A stretch of DNA of 64,000 nucleotides from Methanomicrobia archaeon (lineage in GTDB: Archaea > Halobacteriota > Syntropharchaeia > Alkanophagales > Methanospirareceae): the NCBI GenBank assembly GCA_016930255.1, contig JAFGHB010000022.1, positions 14,989 to 78,988 on the forward strand. Reading direction: 5' to 3'. Position 1 is the first letter of the stretch. Each line of letters opens with the position of its first letter. The translations under genes and the position numbers were made by a program. Below, in pieces: positions 4,868 through 55,364 of this stretch. The notes under the pieces are model-generated. The model had not been told where the DNA came from. It saw nothing but the letters and a program-made list of their open reading frames with translations, and made no database searches.

Positions 4868-6382
4868 TTATTCGAACAGCAGCCGGGCGAGCATGCTGCT
4901 CTTCTTCTCGTCTCTTTCATCGGCCTCCTCTGAATCATCCGAATCCCACTCGACCGTCTTCGATACCGCTGCTTTTCTCGCTGCTCCTCCCCCTCTTGTC
5001 TCCGCAGCTCTACCGCCGTGCTCGCTCTTTCGCACACGGACATCGACCATAATGGGCATCTCGATGCTCGGACTCGAAAGTAACGCGACGCCCTGCGGTA
5101 TCCGCTTGATCTCCTCTTCCATCTCGCTGCTCATAAACTCCAGACCTCTGCTCAACGCCTTGATATCGTTCGGATTCGTCACCTTCAGGATGATCTGCGT
5201 ATTGCACTGCGAGATGACGTTCTTATCCACCCGCGCGGGTCGTTGCGAGATGACGAGCAGCCCCAGCCCGAACTTCCGGCCCTCCGACGCGATGGTTCTC
5301 AAAATATTTGAGCTGACCGCCTGCCCGAATCCCCGTTCCGGACAGAAGTTGTGCGCCTCCTCGATAACGAGCACAAACGGCGGAATCTTGCCCATCTTCC
5401 TGCCTTCAAAAACCTCTTTGCAGAGTCGGTAAACGATTAACTGCTGTAATTTCGGCTCGGCACCTTTCATATCGAGTATAGACGCCTTACCCTCTTTAAC
5501 GAGCTCTTCTATTCGTGTCGGGCTGTCGGAGAGTATGCCGGTATCCCGGATCCGTTCGAGGAAGTGGATGATCTTCCATTTGGTGGTGCTCTTGCTCTCG
5601 ACCACCTCCTTGATGATATCGTCGATCGTGTAAAACTCCTTTCGCGCTTTGATTTCGTTTATACATTGGTATAAAACGCCTAATTGCGCGTCAGACAACG
5701 TGAAGAAGTCATATAATTCGTTTACGCTCAGATTGATCCCATCGATGCGAAATAGCCTGTCCGCAGCTGGATTTATCGAGAAATTCGCCGGTGTGTACAC
5801 CACAACTTGAGGGGCATACCCTTTCGGCGCGATCGCGAATTTATCCATCTGCCTCCGCTCTTCTTCGCTCTGGTTCTCGTATTTCAGTGAGAGATACTCG
5901 CCGTGCGGGTCAACGATAAGCAACGGGACGTTCTTGTCGAGCAGCTCCTCGATGAGCACGCCAGCCGTGTACGACTTGCCACTGCCCGTCTTCGCCAGGA
6001 TGCTGCAGTGTTTCTGGATTAGCTCGTCTTTCTTCAGATAGACCGGAATGTCACGCCCGTCAAGCATACCCAGGTGGATGCCCTTGTTTTTGAGCCCCAG
6101 CGTGTCCATGACGAAACTCTGATCTGCTTTGAAGATCTTGGCATCACGCGGGAGCGTACTTTTTGGCTGCATCAGAAAGCCGCGTTCGTCTTTATACCCG
6201 ATGATCTCCACGGTTGCCGTCTTCTCTTCGACGTCAACCATAGATACGACACGCCCGAGGATCCAGCCGTCTAATTCATTCCATACCTTTACGTACTCGT
6301 TCCTCCTTACCTCGCTGGAGACGGTAAAATCGAACTCGTGCAGTCCAACATCACCCGAAATCGTGCCTACTAACTTATACAT
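4868..6382 (-). CDS. herA: HerA-like hexameric ATPase/helicase (DUF87, FtsK/HerA superfamily)
   Basis: 504 aa with an N-terminal HAS-barrel-like region, Walker A (ILAKTGSGKSYTAG), LLIVDPHGEY and a Walker B region (VLVIEEAHNF), plus an acidic C-terminal tail. Confidence 0.7.
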   Translation of the reverse strand: MYKLVGTISGDVGLHEFDFTVSSEVRRNEYVKVWNELDGWILGRVVSMVDVEEKTATVEIIGYKDERGFLMQPKSTLPRDAKIFKADQSFVMDTLGLKNKGIHLGMLDGRDIPVYLKKDELIQKHCSILAKTGSGKSYTAGVLIEELLDKNVPLLIVDPHGEYLSLKYENQSEEERRQMDKFAIAPKGYAPQVVVYTPANFSINPAADRLFRIDGINLSVNELYDFFTLSDAQLGVLYQCINEIKARKEFYTIDDIIKEVVESKSTTKWKIIHFLERIRDTGILSDSPTRIEELVKEGKASILDMKGAEPKLQQLIVYRLCKEVFEGRKMGKIPPFVLVIEEAHNFCPERGFGQAVSSNILRTIASEGRKFGLGLLVISQRPARVDKNVISQCNTQIILKVTNPNDIKALSRGLEFMSSEMEEEIKRIPQGVALLSSPSIEMPIMVDVRVRKSEHGGRAAETRGGGAARKAAVSKTVEWDSDDSEEADERDEKKSSMLARLLFE

Positions 6383-9839: not shown

Positions 9840-10769
9840 ATGAACACCGCGATTTATCTCATCAGAGCAGTGAGCCTCATTACTTTCGGCGTGATCGTGG
9901 CGAACGTCGTGCTCGAGAGCGATGCGATGCGGAAGTTATCGCCGCTTATACGACCGTTCTGTAGTGCTTCGAACCTGCCGCGTGAAGGTACTATCTCGCT
10001 TTTCGCTGCCTTTTTCAATCCCACCGCTGGGAAATCGACCCTGGCGGGGTTCTATCACGAGGGTAAACTAACCGATAACGAAACGATCGTAACGCTCGTC
10101 ATGAGCACATTTCCGACCGTCGTTGGCGAATCGCTGTTCAGGGTGCATGCGCCGATTGCGCTCGTGCTGTTAGGCCCCGTTATCGGCAGCATTTATATCG
10201 CGCTCACGCTGCTCTCCGCGTTTCTACAGTCATTCGGCGCGTTCGTCTATGCGAAATTGCGCTTCCCGCAGCCGGCGTGTGTTGACGAGGAGATATATGC
10301 AGCTGCAACGGAAACAACAAAGAATCAGAAACTGAAAACGGCACTGAAGAAATCAGTTGCCACGTTGAAAAAGGTAGTACCAATAATGGTCGTGGCGTTT
10401 TTAGTGGTCGATATTCTGTTTACGCTCGGTCTCATGGACAATATTAGTGTCATCTTTGATCCGATCCTGCGCGTATTGGATCTGCCAGGGGAAGTAATCA
10501 CCGCACTCGTTGCGGATTTAGCGCATTTCTCCGCAGGTTACGCGATTGTCGCCGCACTGCTCGCGAAAGGCGTGATCACGGCGAAGCAAGCGATATTAAC
10601 ACTGCTCATTGGCAGCATGCTCATGATAACGCTCGTCTACCTGAAGTACAGCCTTCCCATGTATATGTCGCTCTTCGGCAAGCTCGGGGCGAAGATCACC
10701 GCGATTATGTACCTGAACAGTATGGTTGCGAAGGTGCTGATGATTCTGCTCGTTGTGGTAGTGATGTGA
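9840..10769 (+). CDS. polytopic integral membrane protein, function unknown (possibly the nucleoside-recognition/Gate-domain type)
   Basis: 309 aa with multiple hydrophobic helices and normal GC. I do not recognise the family with any confidence. Confidence 0.45.
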   Translation: MNTAIYLIRAVSLITFGVIVANVVLESDAMRKLSPLIRPFCSASNLPREGTISLFAAFFNPTAGKSTLAGFYHEGKLTDNETIVTLVMSTFPTVVGESLFRVHAPIALVLLGPVIGSIYIALTLLSAFLQSFGAFVYAKLRFPQPACVDEEIYAAATETTKNQKLKTALKKSVATLKKVVPIMVVAFLVVDILFTLGLMDNISVIFDPILRVLDLPGEVITALVADLAHFSAGYAIVAALLAKGVITAKQAILTLLIGSMLMITLVYLKYSLPMYMSLFGKLGAKITAIMYLNSMVAKVLMILLVVVVM

Positions 10770-10883
10770 TGAGTGTTTTTATTAGATATGAGAAAAATAT
10801 AATTTTTTGAAAAATAAATATGTAGTTGAGATCGATAACTTTTAAATATCATTAAGTTTATATCTTTAGCATAGTGTTTTGAA

Positions 10884-11912
10884 ATGATAGAAAACGAAGA
10901 GTGGGACTTTAAAGAGTTTACGCCAGCTATTGCTTTATTAGTAGGTATTTCTGCAGTTTTGTTTAAAATAACAGAATACTTTAACACTAATATTGTAAAT
11001 TTAAGTAATCCTGCACTAATATCAGTTTATCTTTTGGTTTCCGTTTTAATCAGTGAAATTTTAATTATTTCGTTATTTATTTTAACGAAAGGGTATATGA
11101 TAGCGGCAAAGGATGAAGAATTGAAAGTATTAAGAAGAATAAATGCAATTTTAAACCGATGGCTGTTTGTTATTCCTATTTTTGTAATTATTTATTCATT
11201 TTTAAGCGTATTTTACCTTTTCGTTACAAGAAACTGGCAAGGTAACATAATCGGCTACTTTGATAGTTATTCTTGGTTGATGTTCTTTTTGGTTTCTGTA
11301 TTCATTTCCGCCATTCTGTTTACAGACATATATGAGAAGTTTAAGCTTTTATCATTTCAGTATTCAAAATATCTAGTAAAAAAGAAAATTAGATCTTTAG
11401 GTCACATATTCCAATCACCAGAAGATTTAAATAAATCAAATTTTGCTATAATTTTAACCTTATTATTCTATGCTTTTTTATTAATACTTATTCCTTTTGT
11501 ATTAATTATAATACCTACATTTTTGTTATGCGGCTCGTACTCGATCGAAATAGCAAATGCCTCCTATTCTTGCACTGATGAAATGATGGTGACGATATAT
11601 GATACGGGTGTGCCCTCATCAAGGTGTTATATCTCGTTATATAATTTGACAAACTCTAACGAGATATTCTTTGATAATAAGGACGATATAACAATTGAAG
11701 AATCCGGAAAAAATGAATCTCATAATGGATTTATGACTGGCGAGAAGAGAGATGGGATATATTATTTGTCTATAAATACTTCTAGTCTTGTTCCAAACTA
11801 TTATCTCTTAAAGTCCGAAGTAACGTACAATGATTTTCGAAACTTTGCCTTATTAAGAGCTACTAAACGAGACCATAAGTTGTTTTATCTTGCGCCTAAA
11901 AATATTAGTTGA
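10884..11912 (+). CDS. hypothetical multi-pass membrane protein encoded on a markedly AT-rich segment
   Basis: The 342-aa ORF is rich in I/L/F/K/N. The gene and its 110-nt upstream region are visibly more AT-rich than the flanking genes. Confidence 0.5.
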   Translation: MIENEEWDFKEFTPAIALLVGISAVLFKITEYFNTNIVNLSNPALISVYLLVSVLISEILIISLFILTKGYMIAAKDEELKVLRRINAILNRWLFVIPIFVIIYSFLSVFYLFVTRNWQGNIIGYFDSYSWLMFFLVSVFISAILFTDIYEKFKLLSFQYSKYLVKKKIRSLGHIFQSPEDLNKSNFAIILTLLFYAFLLILIPFVLIIIPTFLLCGSYSIEIANASYSCTDEMMVTIYDTGVPSSRCYISLYNLTNSNEIFFDNKDDITIEESGKNESHNGFMTGEKRDGIYYLSINTSSLVPNYYLLKSEVTYNDFRNFALLRATKRDHKLFYLAPKNIS

Positions 11913-11937
11913 AGTGCATTTCCCCAGAAAATCGAAA

Positions 11938-12855
11938 CTACCACACCCGCGCCGCCCGTTGCGCCAGCTCGTTCGCATCTTGCGCCTCGCGCAGCATGCT
12001 TTCATCCAGAAACAAATAAGCAGCTCGCTTGTTGTAGTACGGCGCGCCCTTTCTCGAAAACACCGTCAAAACCTTGCCGTCGTGGTTCACTGCAACACCT
12101 TCACATTGGTAGTGACTTCGTATGACCGTCTTCACTCCCGCCATACTGAGAAATGCGTCCGTCGTCGTCTTCCCAAAGAGCATCCCGGCACCGCGTACTG
12201 ACTCGAAACAGCCGTTGCCCTCGATCGGGTCGTTCCAGAGCAGCTCCTTGAACGTGCTCGTTCCCGGATGTCTCTCGCGTGCGCGCGCAATCTCATCGAG
12301 CGAGGTTATCACGCAAGGCACGCCGCCGTGCATCATCATATACCGTCCCGTAACCAGTACCGCGTAGGGTAAATACGACCACAGCTCTTTGAGGGCCCTG
12401 TAGAGATCCTTGCCCTGCTCACCAAAGCGCTTGACAAAGAACAAAGGCAGTTCATGGGGTCTGAACATCATATCCGGCGGGCCTTCGTGGTTGCCGCGCA
12501 GCAGTACCACGCGTTCACCTTTGCCTGCGAACAACTTCAACCTCAAGACCACATAGTACATCGCAACGCTTTCATCGCCCCGATCGCCGTAATCGCCCAA
12601 AAAGATAATTCGATCCGCGTTTAAAACCTCCTGCTGCTTCAGTATATGCATCAGGCTATCCAGATCGCCGTGGAGATCGCCGATAACGACCATACTTGTC
12701 ACCGTGTGAGGGTCGATGCGCACCAATCCGCCCCCCTTGCGAGCACCCAACTCTTCACGCAATCGATCCTTCGCTTCCGTAATCAGTGCCGCAAACTCCT
12801 CCGCAGACGCCTTGAACGCCTGCTTCACCCATTCATCAACTTCCTCTGCCTTCAT
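11938..12855 (-). CDS. serine/threonine protein phosphatase, PPP-family metallophosphoesterase
   Basis: GDLHGD, GDYGDRG, GNHE and HGG motifs typical of PPP (PP1/PP2A-like) phosphatases. Confidence 0.8.
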   Translation of the reverse strand: MKAEEVDEWVKQAFKASAEEFAALITEAKDRLREELGARKGGGLVRIDPHTVTSMVVIGDLHGDLDSLMHILKQQEVLNADRIIFLGDYGDRGDESVAMYYVVLRLKLFAGKGERVVLLRGNHEGPPDMMFRPHELPLFFVKRFGEQGKDLYRALKELWSYLPYAVLVTGRYMMMHGGVPCVITSLDEIARARERHPGTSTFKELLWNDPIEGNGCFESVRGAGMLFGKTTTDAFLSMAGVKTVIRSHYQCEGVAVNHDGKVLTVFSRKGAPYYNKRAAYLFLDESMLREAQDANELAQRAARVW

Positions 12856-30003: not shown

Positions 30004-30149
30004 GTTCTTTTCGAAGCAAGGCGGTGAACCCCCCCATCGACATGGATAAGAAGGAGATGTTGCGGTAGAGAGTTATGAGTCTACAAAACAGTGATTATGC
30101 GAAAGATTTATAAATTGCTTCACCTAGATAAGAATCAGTTGTTTATGGA

Positions 30150-31868
30150 GTGAATAGAATGGAGGATAATATACAATCTTCACGGGTGATATTCTTTTTA
30201 GGTGCTGGTGCATCCGTTGCTGCTGGGGTTCCCGATACGTATTCCTTTGTTGAAGAATTTAGAGAGAGTATAAGTGACGCTGCTAAAAAAGAATCAATTA
30301 ATCAAATAATCGAGACTCTAGAGGAGTGGAAAGGATCAGAGATTGACATTGAACTCTTATTAGAGACATTAACAAAACTTGAAAGGAAAGATGAAGAACC
30401 ACTAACATCGTTTTTTAAAGAAGATAAGTTCGCTTTAAGCGATTTAACTCTAATAGAACCATTGATAAAAGATTTGAAAGATTTTATTAAAAGCAAAGCT
30501 ATTGTATCAGAGGAGTCAATAAAATATTTGGAACCAATTCTTGGATTCTTGGAAGAACCTTTAGATATTATATCGGTGAATTATGACACCTGTATAGAGC
30601 AGTTCTGTAATGTTTACAGACGTGTCTATCAGGATGGTTTTGAACTTGAATGGAATCCAAAGACTTTTGCTAAGGAACACACAGATATTCGTCTTTATAA
30701 GTTACATGGATCAGTAATGTGGTATCAAAGCGACAAAGCAGGTTACGTCAAAGTACCTATTAGGACAATGGAAAGCGAAATAGAACTTATTACTCGTGAG
30801 AAAGCTATTAACCTCATGCTTTACCCAATGCAAAAGTGGGATTATGCCGAACCGCTTTTAGAACTGCTCGTGGAGATAAAACATCGTCTTGAGTCAGAAA
30901 CGTGCAAGTTTTTGGTTATCGTGGGGTATTCTTTCAGAGATGAACATATCAGAAGGCTACTTTGGGATGCAGCGAGGAAAAACAAAAAACTCACGTGTAT
31001 ATTGATAGATCCGAAGGCATATCAGATTTACTCTAATAAACTTAAATATTATGATGATGCGTCAAAAATTCCCTCATCATTGTATGAACGTGTTGTTTGT
31101 TTGCCGTATAAATTTGAGAAAGTATTCCCTTCCGTCAAAAATTATTACTTACTCAATCTGCAGAATGGTCTTGGTCGTTATGATTCTTTACGTCAACAAG
31201 AAACCATTGAGGGTAAAAAGATAGACTGGATTGCTTGCATCCCTGAGTTGGTAAATGCAGAACATTGTGAAATAGTAGAGCACTTACTTGATCGAATTAA
31301 TGTAACTAAATTTGAAAGAAATTTAGAATTGAACCTTAATTTGCTACTGAAAATGTTTGTTAATTACTCAGCCAGTAACCAAACAGAGAAGGCAGCTGAA
31401 TATTTCCAAAAATTCATTAGTTTTCTTCAAACAATCTTTGTGGAAAGATTAGATCTAGAGGTTTCGAGAGAGCCTAGATTCCCTTCTATTCTGTGGAATT
31501 GCATTCCCACCGATTCAGGTAGGAGTTATCATGATACGAACCAAATAAAGATATTCATTGAAAATTTGTTTGATTTTTGTAACGAGAGAGTAGAGTGGGT
31601 TCAAGAGTCAAGCGATGATTTTTGGAAGGTTAACGAAACGCTAAACTCACTAAATATATATCTGGAGGAGTTTGTAGATGAAACCAAGGATTTTGGAGCG
31701 TATATTACTCTGAGGACTAAAGAAATAGCGGATGTCGTAGGGGATGTCGAAGAATTTAGAAAAAAATACCAAGGAAAAGCGCTTGCGTCGAATGAAGAAC
31801 AAAATGAGCTGAGATCAAAGATTGTGAACATCGAGAAAAACATTTTAACAGGAATTTTAGGGGAGTAG
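30150..31868 (+). CDS. SIR2-like (SIR2_2/DSR-type) domain protein with an uncharacterised helical C-terminal domain; candidate NAD-consuming defence protein
   Basis: VIFFLGAGASVAAGVP (SIR2 GAGxS motif), IISVNYDTCIEQ (SIR2_2 NYD motif), IRLYKLHGSVMW (SIR2_2 KLHGS motif). It is 572 aa, and the gene plus flanks are distinctly AT-rich. Alternative start ATG at 30159. Confidence 0.65.
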   Translation: MNRMEDNIQSSRVIFFLGAGASVAAGVPDTYSFVEEFRESISDAAKKESINQIIETLEEWKGSEIDIELLLETLTKLERKDEEPLTSFFKEDKFALSDLTLIEPLIKDLKDFIKSKAIVSEESIKYLEPILGFLEEPLDIISVNYDTCIEQFCNVYRRVYQDGFELEWNPKTFAKEHTDIRLYKLHGSVMWYQSDKAGYVKVPIRTMESEIELITREKAINLMLYPMQKWDYAEPLLELLVEIKHRLESETCKFLVIVGYSFRDEHIRRLLWDAARKNKKLTCILIDPKAYQIYSNKLKYYDDASKIPSSLYERVVCLPYKFEKVFPSVKNYYLLNLQNGLGRYDSLRQQETIEGKKIDWIACIPELVNAEHCEIVEHLLDRINVTKFERNLELNLNLLLKMFVNYSASNQTEKAAEYFQKFISFLQTIFVERLDLEVSREPRFPSILWNCIPTDSGRSYHDTNQIKIFIENLFDFCNERVEWVQESSDDFWKVNETLNSLNIYLEEFVDETKDFGAYITLRTKEIADVVGDVEEFRKKYQGKALASNEEQNELRSKIVNIEKNILTGILGE

Positions 31869-32032
31869 TTAACGTCAAATTTTTGACGGATTCACACTAC
31901 CTATTACAAAGGCATTGGATTATGGTATTAAGCAGTAAAAGAGACTTCAAATCACATCGCATGGTAATGATCAGGATTAAAAAAATAACTACGAATAACC
32001 TCAAGTTGATTATAGGAGCATCGTAACCGAAA

Positions 32033-32518: not shown

Positions 32519-32716
32519 ATGGAGACGAAAGTGAAAGATTTGACTGTTACTGAACTGCAATCGTTAATAACCGATACAATCAGAGGTGCCCTAGAAGACG
32601 TCATCGAGGATATAGTAGCGCTCTCAAGTGACGAGCATCTCCGCTCTATTGCAGAGGCACGACGCGATTATAAAGAAGGTAACGTGAAGCCGCTTGAGGA
32701 TATCCTTGATGTATAA
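32519..32716 (+). CDS. putative type II antitoxin (RelB/ParD-like)
   Basis: 65 aa, acidic, immediately upstream of a RelE-like ORF and overlapping it by 8 nt. Confidence 0.5.
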   Translation: METKVKDLTVTELQSLITDTIRGALEDVIEDIVALSSDEHLRSIAEARRDYKEGNVKPLEDILDV

Positions 32717-32956
32717 GATCGTAGTTACCCAGCGGGCGCTGAGAGACCTGGAGACATTGAGAGGAATACGCAACAGAGAATCACGCTGAAACTCAAGGAA
32801 TACGCTGAAGAGCCTCTTACGTATGCACGAAAGTTAATCCACACTAAAATAGGAACGTACCGATTCAGAATTGGAGATTACCGTGTCATCTTTGATATTG
32901 AGGACGAGTACCTGGTAATTTTGAGAATCGGGCATCGAAGTAGTATTTACAAATAG
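32709..32956 (+). CDS. relE: RelE/ParE-family toxin; one-base frameshift near 32757 (likely G2 read as G1)
   Basis: MYKIVVTQRALRDLETL in frame 0, continuing in frame +2 as RNTQQRITLKLKEYAEEPLTYARKLIHTKIGTYRFRIGDYRVIFDIEDEYLVILRIGHRSSIYK, which is a typical RelE. Restoring one G gives an intact 81-aa toxin. Confidence 0.6.
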
Positions 32957-33691: not shown

Positions 33692-34357
33692 ATGGCAACC
33701 GTGTTAAAACAGCAAGAAAGCCTTAACGCAGCCTTTTATAAAAGAGCTGGCGTTGGTTTCGCATGCGCGGGCATCGGCGTGATCATCATCATATTTTTTA
33801 CTCGAGCTGTGGTTGTTGGCGGCTTCTTACTTATCGCAGGAACGGTTTTGATACGAGGAGGGCATAAATTTCACCTCGGTGCAGTGGGCGAAAATCGCGT
33901 GGCGAACGTACTGGCCCGCTTCCCTGACGAGTGGTTTATCTTCAATGACATGGTTGTCGGACGTTCTCAAATTGATCACCTTGTTGTCGCTCCTGTTGGC
34001 GTTTTCACCATCGAGACAAAGAACTACCGGGGCACGATCTACGGAAACGCGGCAAAGCAGAAGTGGTCCCAGGTTATCAACCATCACGAAACAACTTTCT
34101 ATAACCCGGTTAAGCAAGGGATCGGTCATTCTGTAGCATTGAGCAAATTCCTCGCGGAATGCGGTTTAAAGAACGTCTGGGTTGACACGATCGTGGTTTT
34201 CGCCGAGCCACGGGTGAATCTTAAGGTGTTCTCGCCCAAAGTGCCGGTAATCTATCTATCCGAATTACGTGAATTGTTAAACAAGCAAAAACAGGTTATG
34301 GACTCTGGCTACTGCACTAAGATCGCTACCTGCGTGTCCACGTTAATTCCTGCTTAG
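33692..34357 (+). CDS. NERD (nuclease-related domain) membrane protein
   Basis: N-terminal TM helices, then GENRVANVL...FNDMVV...IDHLVVAPVGVFTIETKNYRG, consistent with a NERD domain. Confidence 0.6.
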   Translation: MATVLKQQESLNAAFYKRAGVGFACAGIGVIIIIFFTRAVVVGGFLLIAGTVLIRGGHKFHLGAVGENRVANVLARFPDEWFIFNDMVVGRSQIDHLVVAPVGVFTIETKNYRGTIYGNAAKQKWSQVINHHETTFYNPVKQGIGHSVALSKFLAECGLKNVWVDTIVVFAEPRVNLKVFSPKVPVIYLSELRELLNKQKQVMDSGYCTKIATCVSTLIPA

Positions 34358-36354: not shown

Positions 36355-37215
36355 ATGGTGGTTGAACAAATCTCTCGTTCTACCACACCGGTCGTCCTTG
36401 CCAAAGGCGATACGGTGGTCTCACAGGGTACCGGTTTCTTTTATTTATACCTGCATCGGAACCTCAATCTTAAAATTCTCTACCTCGTTACCGCGTATCA
36501 CGTTCTGACCGGCTCGAGCCCGTCAGAGCAAAAGCCGCCTCAAGGCGACAGCATCACGTTCCAGTTTCATCGTTCCGCGGAAGTACCCGGCGATATTAAG
36601 ATCGTGCACCTCCCCTTGTTTACGAAGGACGAGAAACCACGTTGGATAACAAGTTCATCCTGTCCTGAAGCCGATTTAGCGGTAATACCACTCCTCAACA
36701 CCCTGTACAACGGCTGCGACGTAAAAGCGCTCTCCCCGGAATGGGCCGAGGGCGATATAAAGATCAGACCAGCGACGACCGTGACGCTGGTCGGGTATCC
36801 GGACGGATTTTATGACAAAACGAATGCGCTGCCCGTCTGGCACACGGGAAGTGTGGCAAGTGAACCCGAAATTGATTTCGATGCCAAACCTCTGTTTCTC
36901 GTAGACGTGTCTGCCGTTTCCGGTATGTCCGGCGCTCCCGTCTTCGCCATATCCTATGGCACGTATCAACGGAAGAACGGCAGTATAAAGGGAGAGGTTC
37001 AAAAGTTCCTGGGTCTCTACGCACACACGAGTGGGAAGCCTGGGGGTAAGGAGAAGTATCTCGAATTAGAAGAAAGCCACGACAAGAAATCAGGCCTTGT
37101 CGAGTACGAAGCTCGTACGATAGGTCATGTCTGGAAAGCGAGTCTCATTAAACAGACATTAGACAGTATTGATTTCGACCAGTATAATAAGGAGATCCTG
37201 GTGAATTTTATGTAA
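36355..37215 (+). CDS. trypsin-like (chymotrypsin-fold, S1-type) serine peptidase, no signal peptide
   Basis: GTGFF, TAYHV (His), DLAVI (Asp), GMSGAPVF (GxSGxP with the catalytic Ser). Confidence 0.65.
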   Translation: MVVEQISRSTTPVVLAKGDTVVSQGTGFFYLYLHRNLNLKILYLVTAYHVLTGSSPSEQKPPQGDSITFQFHRSAEVPGDIKIVHLPLFTKDEKPRWITSSSCPEADLAVIPLLNTLYNGCDVKALSPEWAEGDIKIRPATTVTLVGYPDGFYDKTNALPVWHTGSVASEPEIDFDAKPLFLVDVSAVSGMSGAPVFAISYGTYQRKNGSIKGEVQKFLGLYAHTSGKPGGKEKYLELEESHDKKSGLVEYEARTIGHVWKASLIKQTLDSIDFDQYNKEILVNFM

Positions 37216-52493: not shown

Positions 52494-55364
52494 TTGGAGA
52501 TGAGTACATACACTAATACTGGAAGCGGATCTGAAAAGCGAATCGTGGAAAAGCTTCAGAACGTACGAATCTTTGTAGCTTCGCCGGGTGACGTAGCAGA
52601 AGAGCGAGAACAGTTGCGAAAGGTTGCTGATAAACTAAACCATTCAATCACGCATGAACTGGGATTCAACTTAGAAGTCGTAGGATGGGAAACTCATGTT
52701 ATTCCCGAAATGGGTGACCGACCGCAGGCAATCATAAATAAACAGATTGACCCGTACGATGTTTTTGTTGGCATCATGTGGAAGAGGTTTGGAACACCTA
52801 CTGGCGAAGCGGAATCGGGAACTGAGGAAGAGTTCAATATCGCTTTTGAATGCCGCAAAAAGTTTGGTATCCCTTGCATCATGTTTTACTTTAACCAAGA
52901 GCCATTCATGCCTCGAACTCAGCATGAGATAAAGCAGTTAGAGAAAGTGATAGAATTTCGAGAGCGTCTGTCTCAAGAAGGGTTAATTTGGGAGTATACA
53001 GGAGCCGAGAGGTTTAAAGATATTGTTGATACACATTTGTCGAAACTTATTGTTCAGTGGAGCAAAAGAGAGGAAGAAGAGACTTCTAAACCTAAAAAAG
53101 AACAAGTGCTTGAACCATATTTCGCCCAGCCATACGCATTGCAGGAGAACTTCGTGGGCAGGCAAAAAGAGCGGGAGTTGCTCTCGGAATGGTTAGAGCA
53201 GGATCCTACGTCTATGCTGGCATTAGTAGCGATTGGCGGTATGGGCAAATCAGCTTTGTCGTGGTACTGGCTTAACGAAGATGTACTGGGAAAAGGCAAG
53301 CAATTCGACGGAGTTGTCTGGTGGTCTTTTTATGATAAAGAAGCGAGTTTTGAAAGGTTTTTAGACAATTCCATACGTTACGCCAGTAGACAGGCGATTG
53401 ACCCCAAAGAGCTAGAATCAATGTGGGATAAGATGCGCGTATTTTTCAAATTATACGGAGAGAGCAATTACCTTGTGGTCCTCGACGGCGTAGAGCGGTT
53501 GCTTAGGGCATATGCCGGCTTGGGATCACCTTATCAGGGAGAGGCTGTAAAGGAGGATGAAAAACAGGAATTCCGTGCCTGTATTGATCCAAATGTAGCG
53601 AAATTTCTTCAATGGCTTTCTGCGGGTTATCCTCAGACTAAAAGCCTTATTACAACACGTCTCTTTCCTAAAGAACTTGAGGGTATTGCTGGATGCCGAT
53701 ATGTAAATCTGGAACGGATGATTAACGAAGATGCCGTCGAATTTTTCCACCGTCAGGGCGTTACCGGCGCACGGGCGGAAATTGAAACGGCTTGTGGTAG
53801 CGTTGATTATCTTCCTCTTTCTCTCCGACTGCTTTCTGGTATGATTGCGAGCGACCCCAAAAATCCAGGGGATATACAGGAATGGCGGAAATACAACCCA
53901 TTGCCTGAATTGAAAGGTAAAGAAGGACACCACATCTTAGATCTCGCTTATAATTCTCTGGATGAACAAAAGCAGAAGTTTATCAGCAGACTTGCGGCGT
54001 TCAGAAACCCGATGGATTACGATGCGGTTTCTATTTTCAACGAGTTTGGCACTGAGGAAAAATTTAATGAGGTTCTGCGTGAACTCGTGGAAAGGGGTTT
54101 AATATTCAGAGACGAGAAAAGCAATAAATTCGATTTGCATCCGATTGTGCGAAGATACTGCTACGAGCGATTAAAAAATAAAGAAAGCATCCATTCAGTG
54201 CTCATGGATTATTTTGCTTATATCCCAGCACCAGAAAAAGTCGAATCAGTGGACGACTTGGCACCAGTTATCGAGCTGTATCACCATACGGTAAGTACAG
54301 GCAAGTATGACGAAGCTATTGATTTATTTGGCAACAGGCTTGCAGCGCCGTTATTTTATGTATTTGGTGCATATCAAGCAAGAATAGAACTGCTTCGTGC
54401 GCTCTTTCCTGATGGCGAGGATAAACCACCAAGATTGAAAGATGAATCTACTCAAGCATGGACGCTGCAAGCACTTGCAAATAGTTACTTAATGTCGGGT
54501 CAGCCTAAAAAAGCCCTCAGAATTTTAGAAACTGCTATTGACCTTGATAAAAAAATTGGAGGGATGAATTGGAAAAAAGTTGGTCTGAATATTCTTGCCT
54601 GGATTCAAATGCAAATCGGGGAACTTGACCTTGCTGAAACAAATCTCAAAAAACAAATTGAATTCTGCCGCGAAATCAAAGACATAATTAGAGAAGCGGT
54701 TGGTCATGCGGAATTAGGCCGATTGTTTGCCTATGAGGGCGAATTCGCGGAATCTCAAGAAGAATTGAATCGAGCACAAAAAGGCGTTGATGATTTTAGG
54801 GAAAAAGGAGGAAGAACAGGGTATATTTCAGTTGTTAGAGCGTACAAATCCATCCGTTCCATTTTTATGTTTAACGCCGACGAGGCTATGAAAGCAGCCA
54901 AAAAAGCCCGTGAACTTGCTGTGATTGACTACACAGAACGAGATGTCATCCAAGCAGAATGCCTCCTCGGAGCCTCCTACTTGATGCAAGAGAATTTAAC
55001 AGAAGCCGAGCAGCATCTATCCGACGCTCTTACGAGAGACCGAAAAATCAATCTCGTGGAATTAGAGCCTGATATTCTGCTGGAGTTTGCTAAACTCAGG
55101 TTTAAACAGAATTACAAGAAAGAAGCGCTGGAAAAGGCGGAAGAAGCGCTGCAGATCGCGGACCGTTGCGAGTACCGGCTGAAGCAGGCTGATATTCACA
55201 ACTTTTTGGCGGCGTTCTATCTGGATGCCGGTGAGGTGGAGAAGGCGAAAGAGCATGCAGAAAAAGCAAAGGAAAGGGCGGAGTGTGGCTACGTTCCAGC
55301 GTTAAAGAAGGCGGAGAAGCTTTTCAAAGAGATCGAACAAAGAAGTAAAGTAAATAAGGGATAA
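52494..55364 (+). CDS. STAND-class NTPase: N-terminal DUF4062-like domain, NB-ARC ATPase, C-terminal TPR array; candidate defence/signalling protein on an AT-rich segment
   Basis: The N-terminus has VRIFVASPGDVAEEREQL...FVGIMWKRFG (DUF4062-like). The NB-ARC domain has Walker A VAIGGMGKSAL, Walker B YLVVLDGVE, SLITTRL (TTR motif) and DYLPLSL (GLPL motif). The C-terminal ~400 aa are TPR-like helical repeats. Low GC. Confidence 0.6.
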   Translation: MEMSTYTNTGSGSEKRIVEKLQNVRIFVASPGDVAEEREQLRKVADKLNHSITHELGFNLEVVGWETHVIPEMGDRPQAIINKQIDPYDVFVGIMWKRFGTPTGEAESGTEEEFNIAFECRKKFGIPCIMFYFNQEPFMPRTQHEIKQLEKVIEFRERLSQEGLIWEYTGAERFKDIVDTHLSKLIVQWSKREEEETSKPKKEQVLEPYFAQPYALQENFVGRQKERELLSEWLEQDPTSMLALVAIGGMGKSALSWYWLNEDVLGKGKQFDGVVWWSFYDKEASFERFLDNSIRYASRQAIDPKELESMWDKMRVFFKLYGESNYLVVLDGVERLLRAYAGLGSPYQGEAVKEDEKQEFRACIDPNVAKFLQWLSAGYPQTKSLITTRLFPKELEGIAGCRYVNLERMINEDAVEFFHRQGVTGARAEIETACGSVDYLPLSLRLLSGMIASDPKNPGDIQEWRKYNPLPELKGKEGHHILDLAYNSLDEQKQKFISRLAAFRNPMDYDAVSIFNEFGTEEKFNEVLRELVERGLIFRDEKSNKFDLHPIVRRYCYERLKNKESIHSVLMDYFAYIPAPEKVESVDDLAPVIELYHHTVSTGKYDEAIDLFGNRLAAPLFYVFGAYQARIELLRALFPDGEDKPPRLKDESTQAWTLQALANSYLMSGQPKKALRILETAIDLDKKIGGMNWKKVGLNILAWIQMQIGELDLAETNLKKQIEFCREIKDIIREAVGHAELGRLFAYEGEFAESQEELNRAQKGVDDFREKGGRTGYISVVRAYKSIRSIFMFNADEAMKAAKKARELAVIDYTERDVIQAECLLGASYLMQENLTEAEQHLSDALTRDRKINLVELEPDILLEFAKLRFKQNYKKEALEKAEEALQIADRCEYRLKQADIHNFLAAFYLDAGEVEKAKEHAEKAKERAECGYVPALKKAEKLFKEIEQRSKVNKG

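Follow-up and report, generated by a model that had tools for sequence, protein, structure and literature searches.

The analysed stretch of DNA (64,000 nucleotides of contig JAFGHB010000022.1, assembly GCA_016930255.1, from a Methanomicrobia archaeon; hereafter the window) carries on its forward strand a gene for a compact two-domain protein of the sirtuin type, for which a role in antiviral defence is the interpretation we favour. The coding sequence (30159..31868, +; 569 aa plus stop) comprises an N-terminal SIR2_2/SIRim-type domain (aa 1-315; 30159..31103, +) and a C-terminal domain, or tail (aa 316-569; 31104..31865, +). A first-pass annotation of this DNA had described a 572-aa protein, and a reading of that length does exist in the list of open reading frames (ORFs), running over 30150..31868 on the + strand from a GTG at 30150. 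The true start is nevertheless almost certainly the ATG at 30159, which gives 569 aa, because a putative Shine-Dalgarno-like element read directly from the sequence (GGAGTG, 30147..30152, +) lies 6 nt upstream of this ATG and encloses the GTG, the homologues begin with MEDNIQ, MDNNM or MGDNIE, and the public protein search returned an identical protein of 569 aa (P0001, 'MAG: SIR2 family protein [Methanomicrobia archaeon]', MAG being a metagenome-assembled genome).

The N-terminal domain has a Rossmann core with a helical insert (aa 27-130), as outlined by Pfam, PADLOC, AlphaFold2 (AF2) and Foldseek, and scores 43.6 bits with the Pfam model SIR2_2 (PF13289; cutoff 24.5, E = 4e-11). The three motifs by which the first-pass annotation had recognised it (GAGAS, NYD and KLHGS) are intact, and in an alignment of 57 full-length homologues their key residues do not vary: G15, G17 and S19 in the NAD-binding glycine loop GAGAS (aa 15-19; 30201..30215, +), all of the catalytic N141-Y142-D143 (30579..30587, +; 57/57), and K181, H183, G184 and S185 in the K181-L-H183-G-S185 motif that holds the catalytic histidine (30699..30713, +). 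The NYD aligns with that of PsSIR2 (8w9l), and a profile search against PDB sequences aligned both NYD and KLHGS to the SIR2 subunits of SIR2-HerA systems. The DSR2 residues equivalent to the catalytic N and H (N133 and H171) are needed for defence (10.1101/2021.12.14.472415).

The 25 PADLOC matches listed are all confined to the SIR2 region (aa 7-305), the best among them being the pAgo-associated Aga_SIR2 (PDLC02408, 113 bits, E = 5e-33, aa 7-292, nearly the full profile), followed by models named just SIR2. The AF2 model of the protein (predicted local distance difference test, pLDDT, 86.7; predicted template modelling score, pTM, 0.85) was placed by Foldseek nearest to the SIR2 subunits of SIR2-HerA in the PDB (8sub, 8w9l and 8wld; E ~1e-10, 17-20% identity), with ThsA, the SPARSA SIR2-APAZ protein, human FAM118B, KomBC and DSR2 as runners-up, and every one of these alignments (~300-370 columns) spans the SIR2 domain alone. 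The SIRim immune subfamily is defined by a GxG loop, an xxNxD motif, a catalytic His, the lack of a Zn-binding Cys tetrad and a sheet of at least 7 strands (10.1101/2024.09.18.613514). The window protein contains no CxxC motif, and so no zinc-binding Cys module, and its model has ~10 strands within aa 1-315; judged by motifs and predicted fold (the strand count being that of the model), the domain belongs to the SIR2_2/SIRim superfamily. A classical sirtuin deacylase of the CobB type was also considered and rejected, as neither a PF02146 match (at E <= 1) nor a CxxC motif was found and the corresponding NCBIfam model (NF001752) gave 14 bits vs. a cutoff of 221. Within the SIR2 domain, sequence conservation peaks at aa 185-230 (nt 30711-30848; column identity 0.80-0.88), where confidence in the model is lowest (pLDDT 54-67); this stretch may be a mobile gating or oligomerisation element.

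In the model, the C-terminal domain consists of bundled long helices and a single three-stranded beta meander (aa 432-458), and a separate AF2 prediction of this part, made with a 24-sequence alignment, was equally confident (pLDDT 88.2, pTM 0.85). Conservation is concentrated in W357 and an N-A-E-H motif (aa 366-369), the remainder being variable. The first-pass annotation had called these ~250 residues helical and like nothing it recognised, and had proposed a structure prediction with a Foldseek search; both were carried out, and the description stands. Pfam searches with the C-terminal domains of 24 members gave no family at a meaningful E-value, PADLOC and PDB sequence profiles gave no match, no relative emerged among PDB structures, Foldseek against viral structures returned nothing at E <= 0.001, and an internal repeat search found none. 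The matches to DASH_Dad1 and the progesterone receptor were dismissed as noise (E > 0.001), and the label 'prefoldin subunit 5' given by JGI (the Joint Genome Institute) to the relative P0022 matched nothing beyond a coiled-coil-like hairpin. SLOG, Macro, APAZ, TPR and NTPase/STAND identities were likewise ruled out by comparison of sequence and structure. When the C-terminal profile was run with HMMER against all of 1.84 billion cluster representatives, only 177 proteins were recovered at E <= 0.001, in which the domain starts at about residue 310-340 and runs to the C-terminus (the proteins being ~560-660 aa long, or fragments); SIR2_2 lay upstream in all ten of the matches of unusual length that were checked. 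Restricted as it is to this position with SIR2 upstream, the domain therefore belongs to one fixed architecture.

Comparison with the described SIR2 defence systems bears out the earlier claim that none of their architectures fits. The best functional analogy is with DSR1/DSR2, likewise single genes in which an N-terminal SIR2 domain with the same N and H residues precedes a non-enzymatic helical C-terminal region (that of DSR2 is reported to bind the phage tail tube). The DSR2 chain 8w56_A, however, has 973 residues vs. 569 aa here, no DSR model is among the 25 PADLOC matches listed, the Foldseek match to 8w56 is weak (E = 5e-4, TM 0.26/0.17), and the tail of the window protein has no recognisable solenoid and no detectable homology to anything. 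The SIR2-HerA (Nezha) structures (8sub, 8w9l, 8wld, 8j4u) are the closest solved relatives of the SIR2 domain (TM to target 0.54-0.62), yet their SIR2 subunits are ~340-400 aa long and end without a C-terminal domain, an adjacent HerA is required there whereas none is adjacent in the 30 loci inspected here, and the equivalog model SIR2_antiphage (NCBIfam NF042942) gave 45.5 bits vs. a cutoff of 500. SPARSA SIR2-APAZ (8jl0/8in8) is similar in length (573-587 aa) and is the class to which Aga_SIR2, the best hidden Markov model (HMM) match listed, points; no pAgo lies nearby, though, the SIR2-PNTD (APAZ) models match aa 9-59 only, the 8jl0 alignment ends at ~308 columns, and the SIR2-APAZ chains match only positions 5-30 of the profile.

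ThsA of Thoeris resembles the window protein in joining a SIR2_2 effector to a C-terminal regulatory domain (Foldseek 8bto, E = 3e-5), but the PADLOC ThsA1 model gave just 18.9 bits (E = 1e-4), Pfam found neither SLOG nor Macro nor TIR, and no ThsB/TIR neighbour is present. Avs5 (SIR2-STAND) differs in its STAND/NOD NTPase domain, placed between SIR2 and the sensor, which Pfam did not find here and which the helical C-terminal bundle, lacking a P-loop fold in the AF2 model, does not provide. The nearest annotated plasmid relative (WP_012592957.1 of Shewanella baltica pS22302; 24.9% identity over aa 1-302) sits in a restriction-modification (RM) operon, and at L033 (locus numbers are ours) a related SIR2 of 415 aa follows hsdM; such SIR2-only proteins of RM operons (~380-415 aa) lack the C-terminal domain wholly. 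On the features tested, the window protein thus falls outside DSR1/2, ThsA, SIR2-HerA, SPARSA and Avs5, and no model of Pfam, NCBIfam or PADLOC (2023) covers its full length.

The novelty suggested by the first-pass annotation holds for the C-terminal domain, which has no known relative, and not for the gene as such, which is no orphan: it belongs to a sizeable unnamed metagenomic family. A word-indexed search returned 969 relatives, more than 100 of them full-length (~560-600 aa, 42-84% identity), with source names that include Methanoperedens, Halobacteriota, Helarchaeota, Thermodesulfobacteriota, KSB1 and Ruminiclostridium. A pattern-based scan of the GTDB species representatives yielded ~24 loci, all in MAGs, whose hosts (Methanoperedens, Methanotrichaceae, ANME-1, Bathyarchaeia, Nitrososphaera, Elusimicrobiota, Dehalococcoidia, Zixibacteria, WOR-3, KSB1 and others) are scattered patchily over ~12 phyla of archaea and bacteria; a local HMM found the C-terminal domain retained in 19 of them. 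Archaeal and bacterial members stand about equally far from the window protein (50-55% identity), implying that the gene has crossed between the two domains of life.

The two halves of the protein evolve at different rates. Column identity averages 0.72-0.88 over the SIR2 domain vs. 0.35-0.56 over the C-terminal domain. In comparisons with three relatives, the ratio of non-synonymous to synonymous substitution (dN/dS, Nei-Gojobori) came to 0.25, 0.28 and 0.12 for the SIR2 domain and to 0.56, 0.68 and 0.43 for the tail, which changes 2-4 times faster at non-synonymous sites. Three sister genes from ANME-1 and WOR-3 MAGs (L031 9833-11740, L032 246-2066 and L034 7766-9253) retain 39-43% identity in the SIR2 domain and carry C-terminal regions of ~200-300 aa on which our tail HMM is silent and Pfam finds no match; for L031 and L032, hhalign assigned a probability below 1% to a relation with the window tail (a single-sequence comparison of limited sensitivity). 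These tails may reflect swapping on a common SIR2 chassis. In relatives of 337-419 aa the tail is absent entirely. Other copies are interrupted: L042 (7704-9431) has an in-frame stop near codon 35, so that the protein called there (P0008) is without the GAGAS loop, L026 ends at 384 aa, and the reading frames of L029 and L030 are broken. Although assembly errors are possible, such copies would fit gain-and-loss dynamics.

The gene lies in an AT-rich block (30044..32000, GC ~0.35) of which it is the only gene, flanked by host-like DNA with a GC of 0.51-0.57. Its low GC and foreign look had been noted at first sight, and the composition agrees: the GC of the gene, 0.356, is far below the mean of the window (0.489; z = -3.0 with an sd of 0.044 among 1.7-kb windows), the lowest-GC 1.7-kb stretch of all 64 kb begins at 30301, and GC at third codon positions (GC3) is 0.33 vs. 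0.55-0.66 in the neighbouring genes for dCMP deaminase, aroD, GNAT, TrmO and NERD. The same holds throughout the family, the gene being AT-richer than its own flanks in 29/29 loci (delta GC -0.014 to -0.24). L012 shares 89% nucleotide identity with the window solely from 30096 onward (63 nt upstream of the ATG), its flanks, upstream DNA included, being unrelated, and the 74% identity of L042 is confined to the gene, within a different genomic context. L041 represents a syntenic sister lineage in which an intact copy is kept, as in the window, with the GNAT gene on one side and the downstream DNA on the other. Taken together, these three comparisons indicate that the gene is transferred on its own, as a cassette, and that vertical retention can follow, and horizontal acquisition is supported by composition and by near-identical copies in unrelated contexts. 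The flanks showed no convincing direct or inverted repeats, no tRNA target, no integrase and no transposase (a 20-nt imperfect inverted repeat at 30019/32337, 80% complementary, was regarded as chance), and no full-length relative was found in IMG/VR contigs, phage records or plasmid records. At L041 the spacing differs by ~450 nt of extra sequence between the GNAT and SIR2 genes (699-1151, with a 102-aa ORF lacking a Pfam match), which is absent from the window.

The neighbourhoods of the orthologues, the inspection of which the first-pass annotation had recommended, are variable and repeatedly include RM or other conflict genes. When 587 flanking ORFs from 30 loci were clustered, no family reached a fourth locus; of the clusters that span three loci, two reflect RsmB-side synteny among Methanoperedens-type loci (L013, L017, L018), a further one is a small ORF (L013, L018, L030), and HsdM-type methyltransferases form the cluster that recurs in three unrelated loci. 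No HerA, pAgo/PIWI or ThsB/TIR partner is conserved across the 30 loci: the gene is organised as a solitary one. Conflict contexts comprise an Eco57I-type methyltransferase with DUF6602 and DUF4145 at one locus, an ABC-3C CTD10/DUF2326/MC6-7 system at another, and elsewhere Mrr, RloB with AAA_21, and type I RM. In a PADLOC search of 141 neighbour proteins from 25 loci, the matches at E <= 1e-10 include mad2 (6), MTase_I (3), AriA (3) and Specificity_I (2), raw counts that are suggestive of defence-gene neighbours around the family. The nearest plasmid SIR2 proteins (23-25% identity, SIR2 domain only) are the RM-operon SIR2 of Shewanella and the SIR2 of an Enterobacter SIR2-HerA pair. In the window itself the sole HerA/DUF87 gene lies, as had been stated, 24 kb away (4868-6382, -), beside Sua5, glucose-6-phosphate isomerase (GPI) and AspRS, and matches the PADLOC HerA models only partially; it was rejected as a partner given this distance, its housekeeping surroundings and the fact that no HerA recurs in the 30 loci.

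We reason, with a probability of roughly 55%, that the gene encodes a single-protein, NAD-depleting sensor-effector of abortive infection that is passed on horizontally, a predicted role drawn by analogy with systems such as DSR1, DSR2, SIR2-HerA and SIR2/pAgo, in all of which NAD+ is depleted upon infection (10.1101/2021.12.14.472415). Within the reach of computation, the first-pass view of a candidate NAD-depleting defence gene is supported. The SIR2_2 effector would bind NAD+ through the GAGAS loop and hydrolyse it with N141, D143 and H183, like other defence sirtuins, while the C-terminal domain would keep the enzyme off in uninfected cells. This domain would also recognise a cue from the invader, most likely a viral protein (in analogy to the C-terminal domain of DSR2 and the sensor domains of Avs), and recognition would release or oligomerise the SIR2 domains; the ensuing collapse of NAD+ would leave the infected cell unable to support replication of the virus. 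A bolder version, which we hold only tentatively and at less than even odds, is that the C-terminal domain has a previously unseen fold and acts as a receptor that directly binds a structural or replication protein of the archaeal and bacterial viruses of anoxic habitats, i.e. those infecting Methanoperedens, ANME-1, methanogens and Bathyarchaeia.

Several points weigh against the interpretation as a sensor-effector. The NADase activity, the defence role, and the sensing and autoinhibitory role of the tail are what we infer, the observations themselves ending at domain identity, intact catalytic motifs, solitary organisation, horizontal mobility and unequal rates. Many copies are singletons among housekeeping genes, outside defence islands. 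No other effector was found to carry the C-terminal domain, and this lack of shuffling makes the modular-sensor argument weaker than for the sensors of Avs or CBASS; the tail might just as well be a scaffold for oligomerisation. With a dN/dS below 1 over the whole domain, the tail may be under relaxed constraint as readily as under diversifying selection. The literature searched yielded no description of this architecture, which is no proof that none exists, and pattern-based genome and viral scans may miss relatives.

Among the alternatives, we consider the least unlikely to be that the tail mainly serves to scaffold assembly into a tetramer, a ring or a filament, with activation coming about through concentration- or ligand-driven oligomerisation sensed in the SIR2 domain itself. 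Defence SIR2 relatives do act as oligomers or filaments, to go by the titles of PDB entries (a SIR2-HerA dodecamer, helical ThsA assemblies, FAM118B filaments, KomBC helices), and the conserved aa 185-230, with their low pLDDT, could be mobile; an interface, however, would be expected to be conserved, and it is the tail that evolves fastest and that is replaced by unrelated sequence in the sisters. Only slightly less plausible, and still improbable, is an NAD-using modifier, defensive or regulatory, that ADP-ribosylates or deacylates a specific protein or nucleic acid selected by the tail. The SIR2 fold does allow transfer chemistry besides hydrolysis, the catalytic N/D/H are common to both activities, and the housekeeping surroundings of many copies would suit such a function. 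Yet the zinc-binding substrate module is missing, the searches for a classical sirtuin failed (nothing in Pfam at E <= 1; 14 bits vs. a cutoff of 221 for the NCBIfam deacylase), a conserved housekeeping role is at odds with patchy spread, foreign composition and pseudogenised copies, and the characterised SIR2_2-type relatives recovered are all NADases in immune systems.

That the protein is instead the effector subunit of a multi-gene system with its partner (HerA, pAgo or ThsB-like) elsewhere, the C-terminal domain being a docking or signal-binding module, seems to us a poor candidate. The lack of any HerA, PIWI or TIR family recurring beside the gene in the 30 loci argues against it, as do the 45.5 bits with SIR2_antiphage (cutoff 500), even though the SIR2 domain is closest in structure to SIR2-HerA and, among the HMM matches listed, to the pAgo-associated SIR2; a HerA homologue does occur in the window (4868-6382), but 24 kb off and next to Sua5, GPI and AspRS. 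We give the lowest odds to a gene that serves a mobile element as a selfish toxin or for addiction, or that is decaying and no longer functions in this genome. Foreign composition, relatives with premature stops or broken frames and the degraded ParE toxin gene nearby would accord with this, but the window copy is intact, the SIR2 dN/dS of 0.25 denotes purifying selection, and the syntenic sister L041 keeps the gene intact at the same site; moreover, no integrase, transposase or repeat boundaries flank it, plasmid, phage and viral records did not contain it, and the 30 loci hold no conserved antitoxin-like partner.

SIR2-mediated depletion of NAD+ recurs as an immune strategy from bacteria to humans, and the systems differ in how infection is sensed. 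Interpreted as a sensor-effector of abortive infection, the family combines a known effector and a known logic, and what is new is the putative sensor domain and a little-explored host range: a compact (~570 aa) predicted protein with a confidently modelled putative recognition domain. Its carriers include Methanoperedens, ANME-1, methanogens, Bathyarchaeia and several candidate bacterial phyla; how these lineages interact with their viruses has hardly been explored, and their defence repertoires are for the most part deduced from bacterial models. Another SIR2 fusion will hardly surprise the specialist; the interest lies in the tail as a structural orphan, the fixed compact architecture and the methane-cycling archaeal hosts. 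If active, the protein would add a new trigger-recognition module to the defence sirtuins, allow the archaeal viral components that trigger immunity to be identified, and give structural biologists and engineers a small NADase switch encoded by one gene; should it turn out inactive or unrelated to defence, it would warn against equating every SIR2_2 fusion with immunity. Should the tail prove to be a direct viral receptor, the family would form a third, compact class of defence sirtuins ('DSR3-like') and rank among the first NADase systems of abortive infection native to methane-cycling archaea, and the sister clades with unrelated tails on the same SIR2 chassis would amount to a swappable sensor repertoire.

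As regards local signals, a putative archaeal TATA box (TTTATAAAT, 30107..30115, +), recognised by direct reading of the sequence, precedes the ATG by ~45-50 nt and belongs to the segment that moves together with the gene, as the homology with L012 begins at 30096. A palindrome with a T-run (CGTCAAA-TT-TTTGACG, 31873..31888, +), 5 nt past the stop, is a possible terminator on the same grounds; the terminator scan did not detect it. Rfam gave no match on either strand of the gene flanks, and a sigma-70 promoter scan stayed at shuffle level, the model being uninformative for an archaeon.

Over the 7 kb that follow the gene, a degraded ParE pair, a NERD protein and a PDC-S45 match are interleaved with housekeeping genes. 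The relBE-like pair reported by the first-pass annotation ~650 nt downstream is indeed present (32519-32956, +), starting 651 nt past the stop with an antitoxin-like ORF of 65 aa (32519-32716), but the toxin is of the ParE family (ParE/RelE superfamily; PF05016, E = 2.5e-13) and frameshifted. It can be read only by joining two frames near 32755-32765 (local GC 0.43-0.45), and is therefore a pseudogene or an assembly error. The NERD-domain membrane protein (33692-34357, +; PF08378, E = 3e-27) carries a hydrophobic segment at its N-terminus and matches PglW of PADLOC weakly. Farther on, 4.5 kb downstream of the SIR2 gene, a 286-aa protein (36355-37215, +) matches PDC-S45, a phage-defence candidate of PADLOC, over nearly its full length (positions 16-281 of the 293 in the profile; E = 1.7e-33), with weak matches to RT-Protease and LmuA. 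A 956-aa STAND-type protein (52494-55364, +; DUF4062, NB-ARC and MalT-like TPR; GC3 0.43), whose N-terminus matches PADLOC PDC-S60 (E = 9e-43), is a further candidate for defence, of the Avs/NLR-like kind. Finally, a block at 10251-11960 is as AT-rich as the SIR2 gene (GC 0.357, GC3 0.28) and contains an ORF of 342 aa (10884-11912, +) without Pfam or PADLOC matches; it is probably another foreign insertion.

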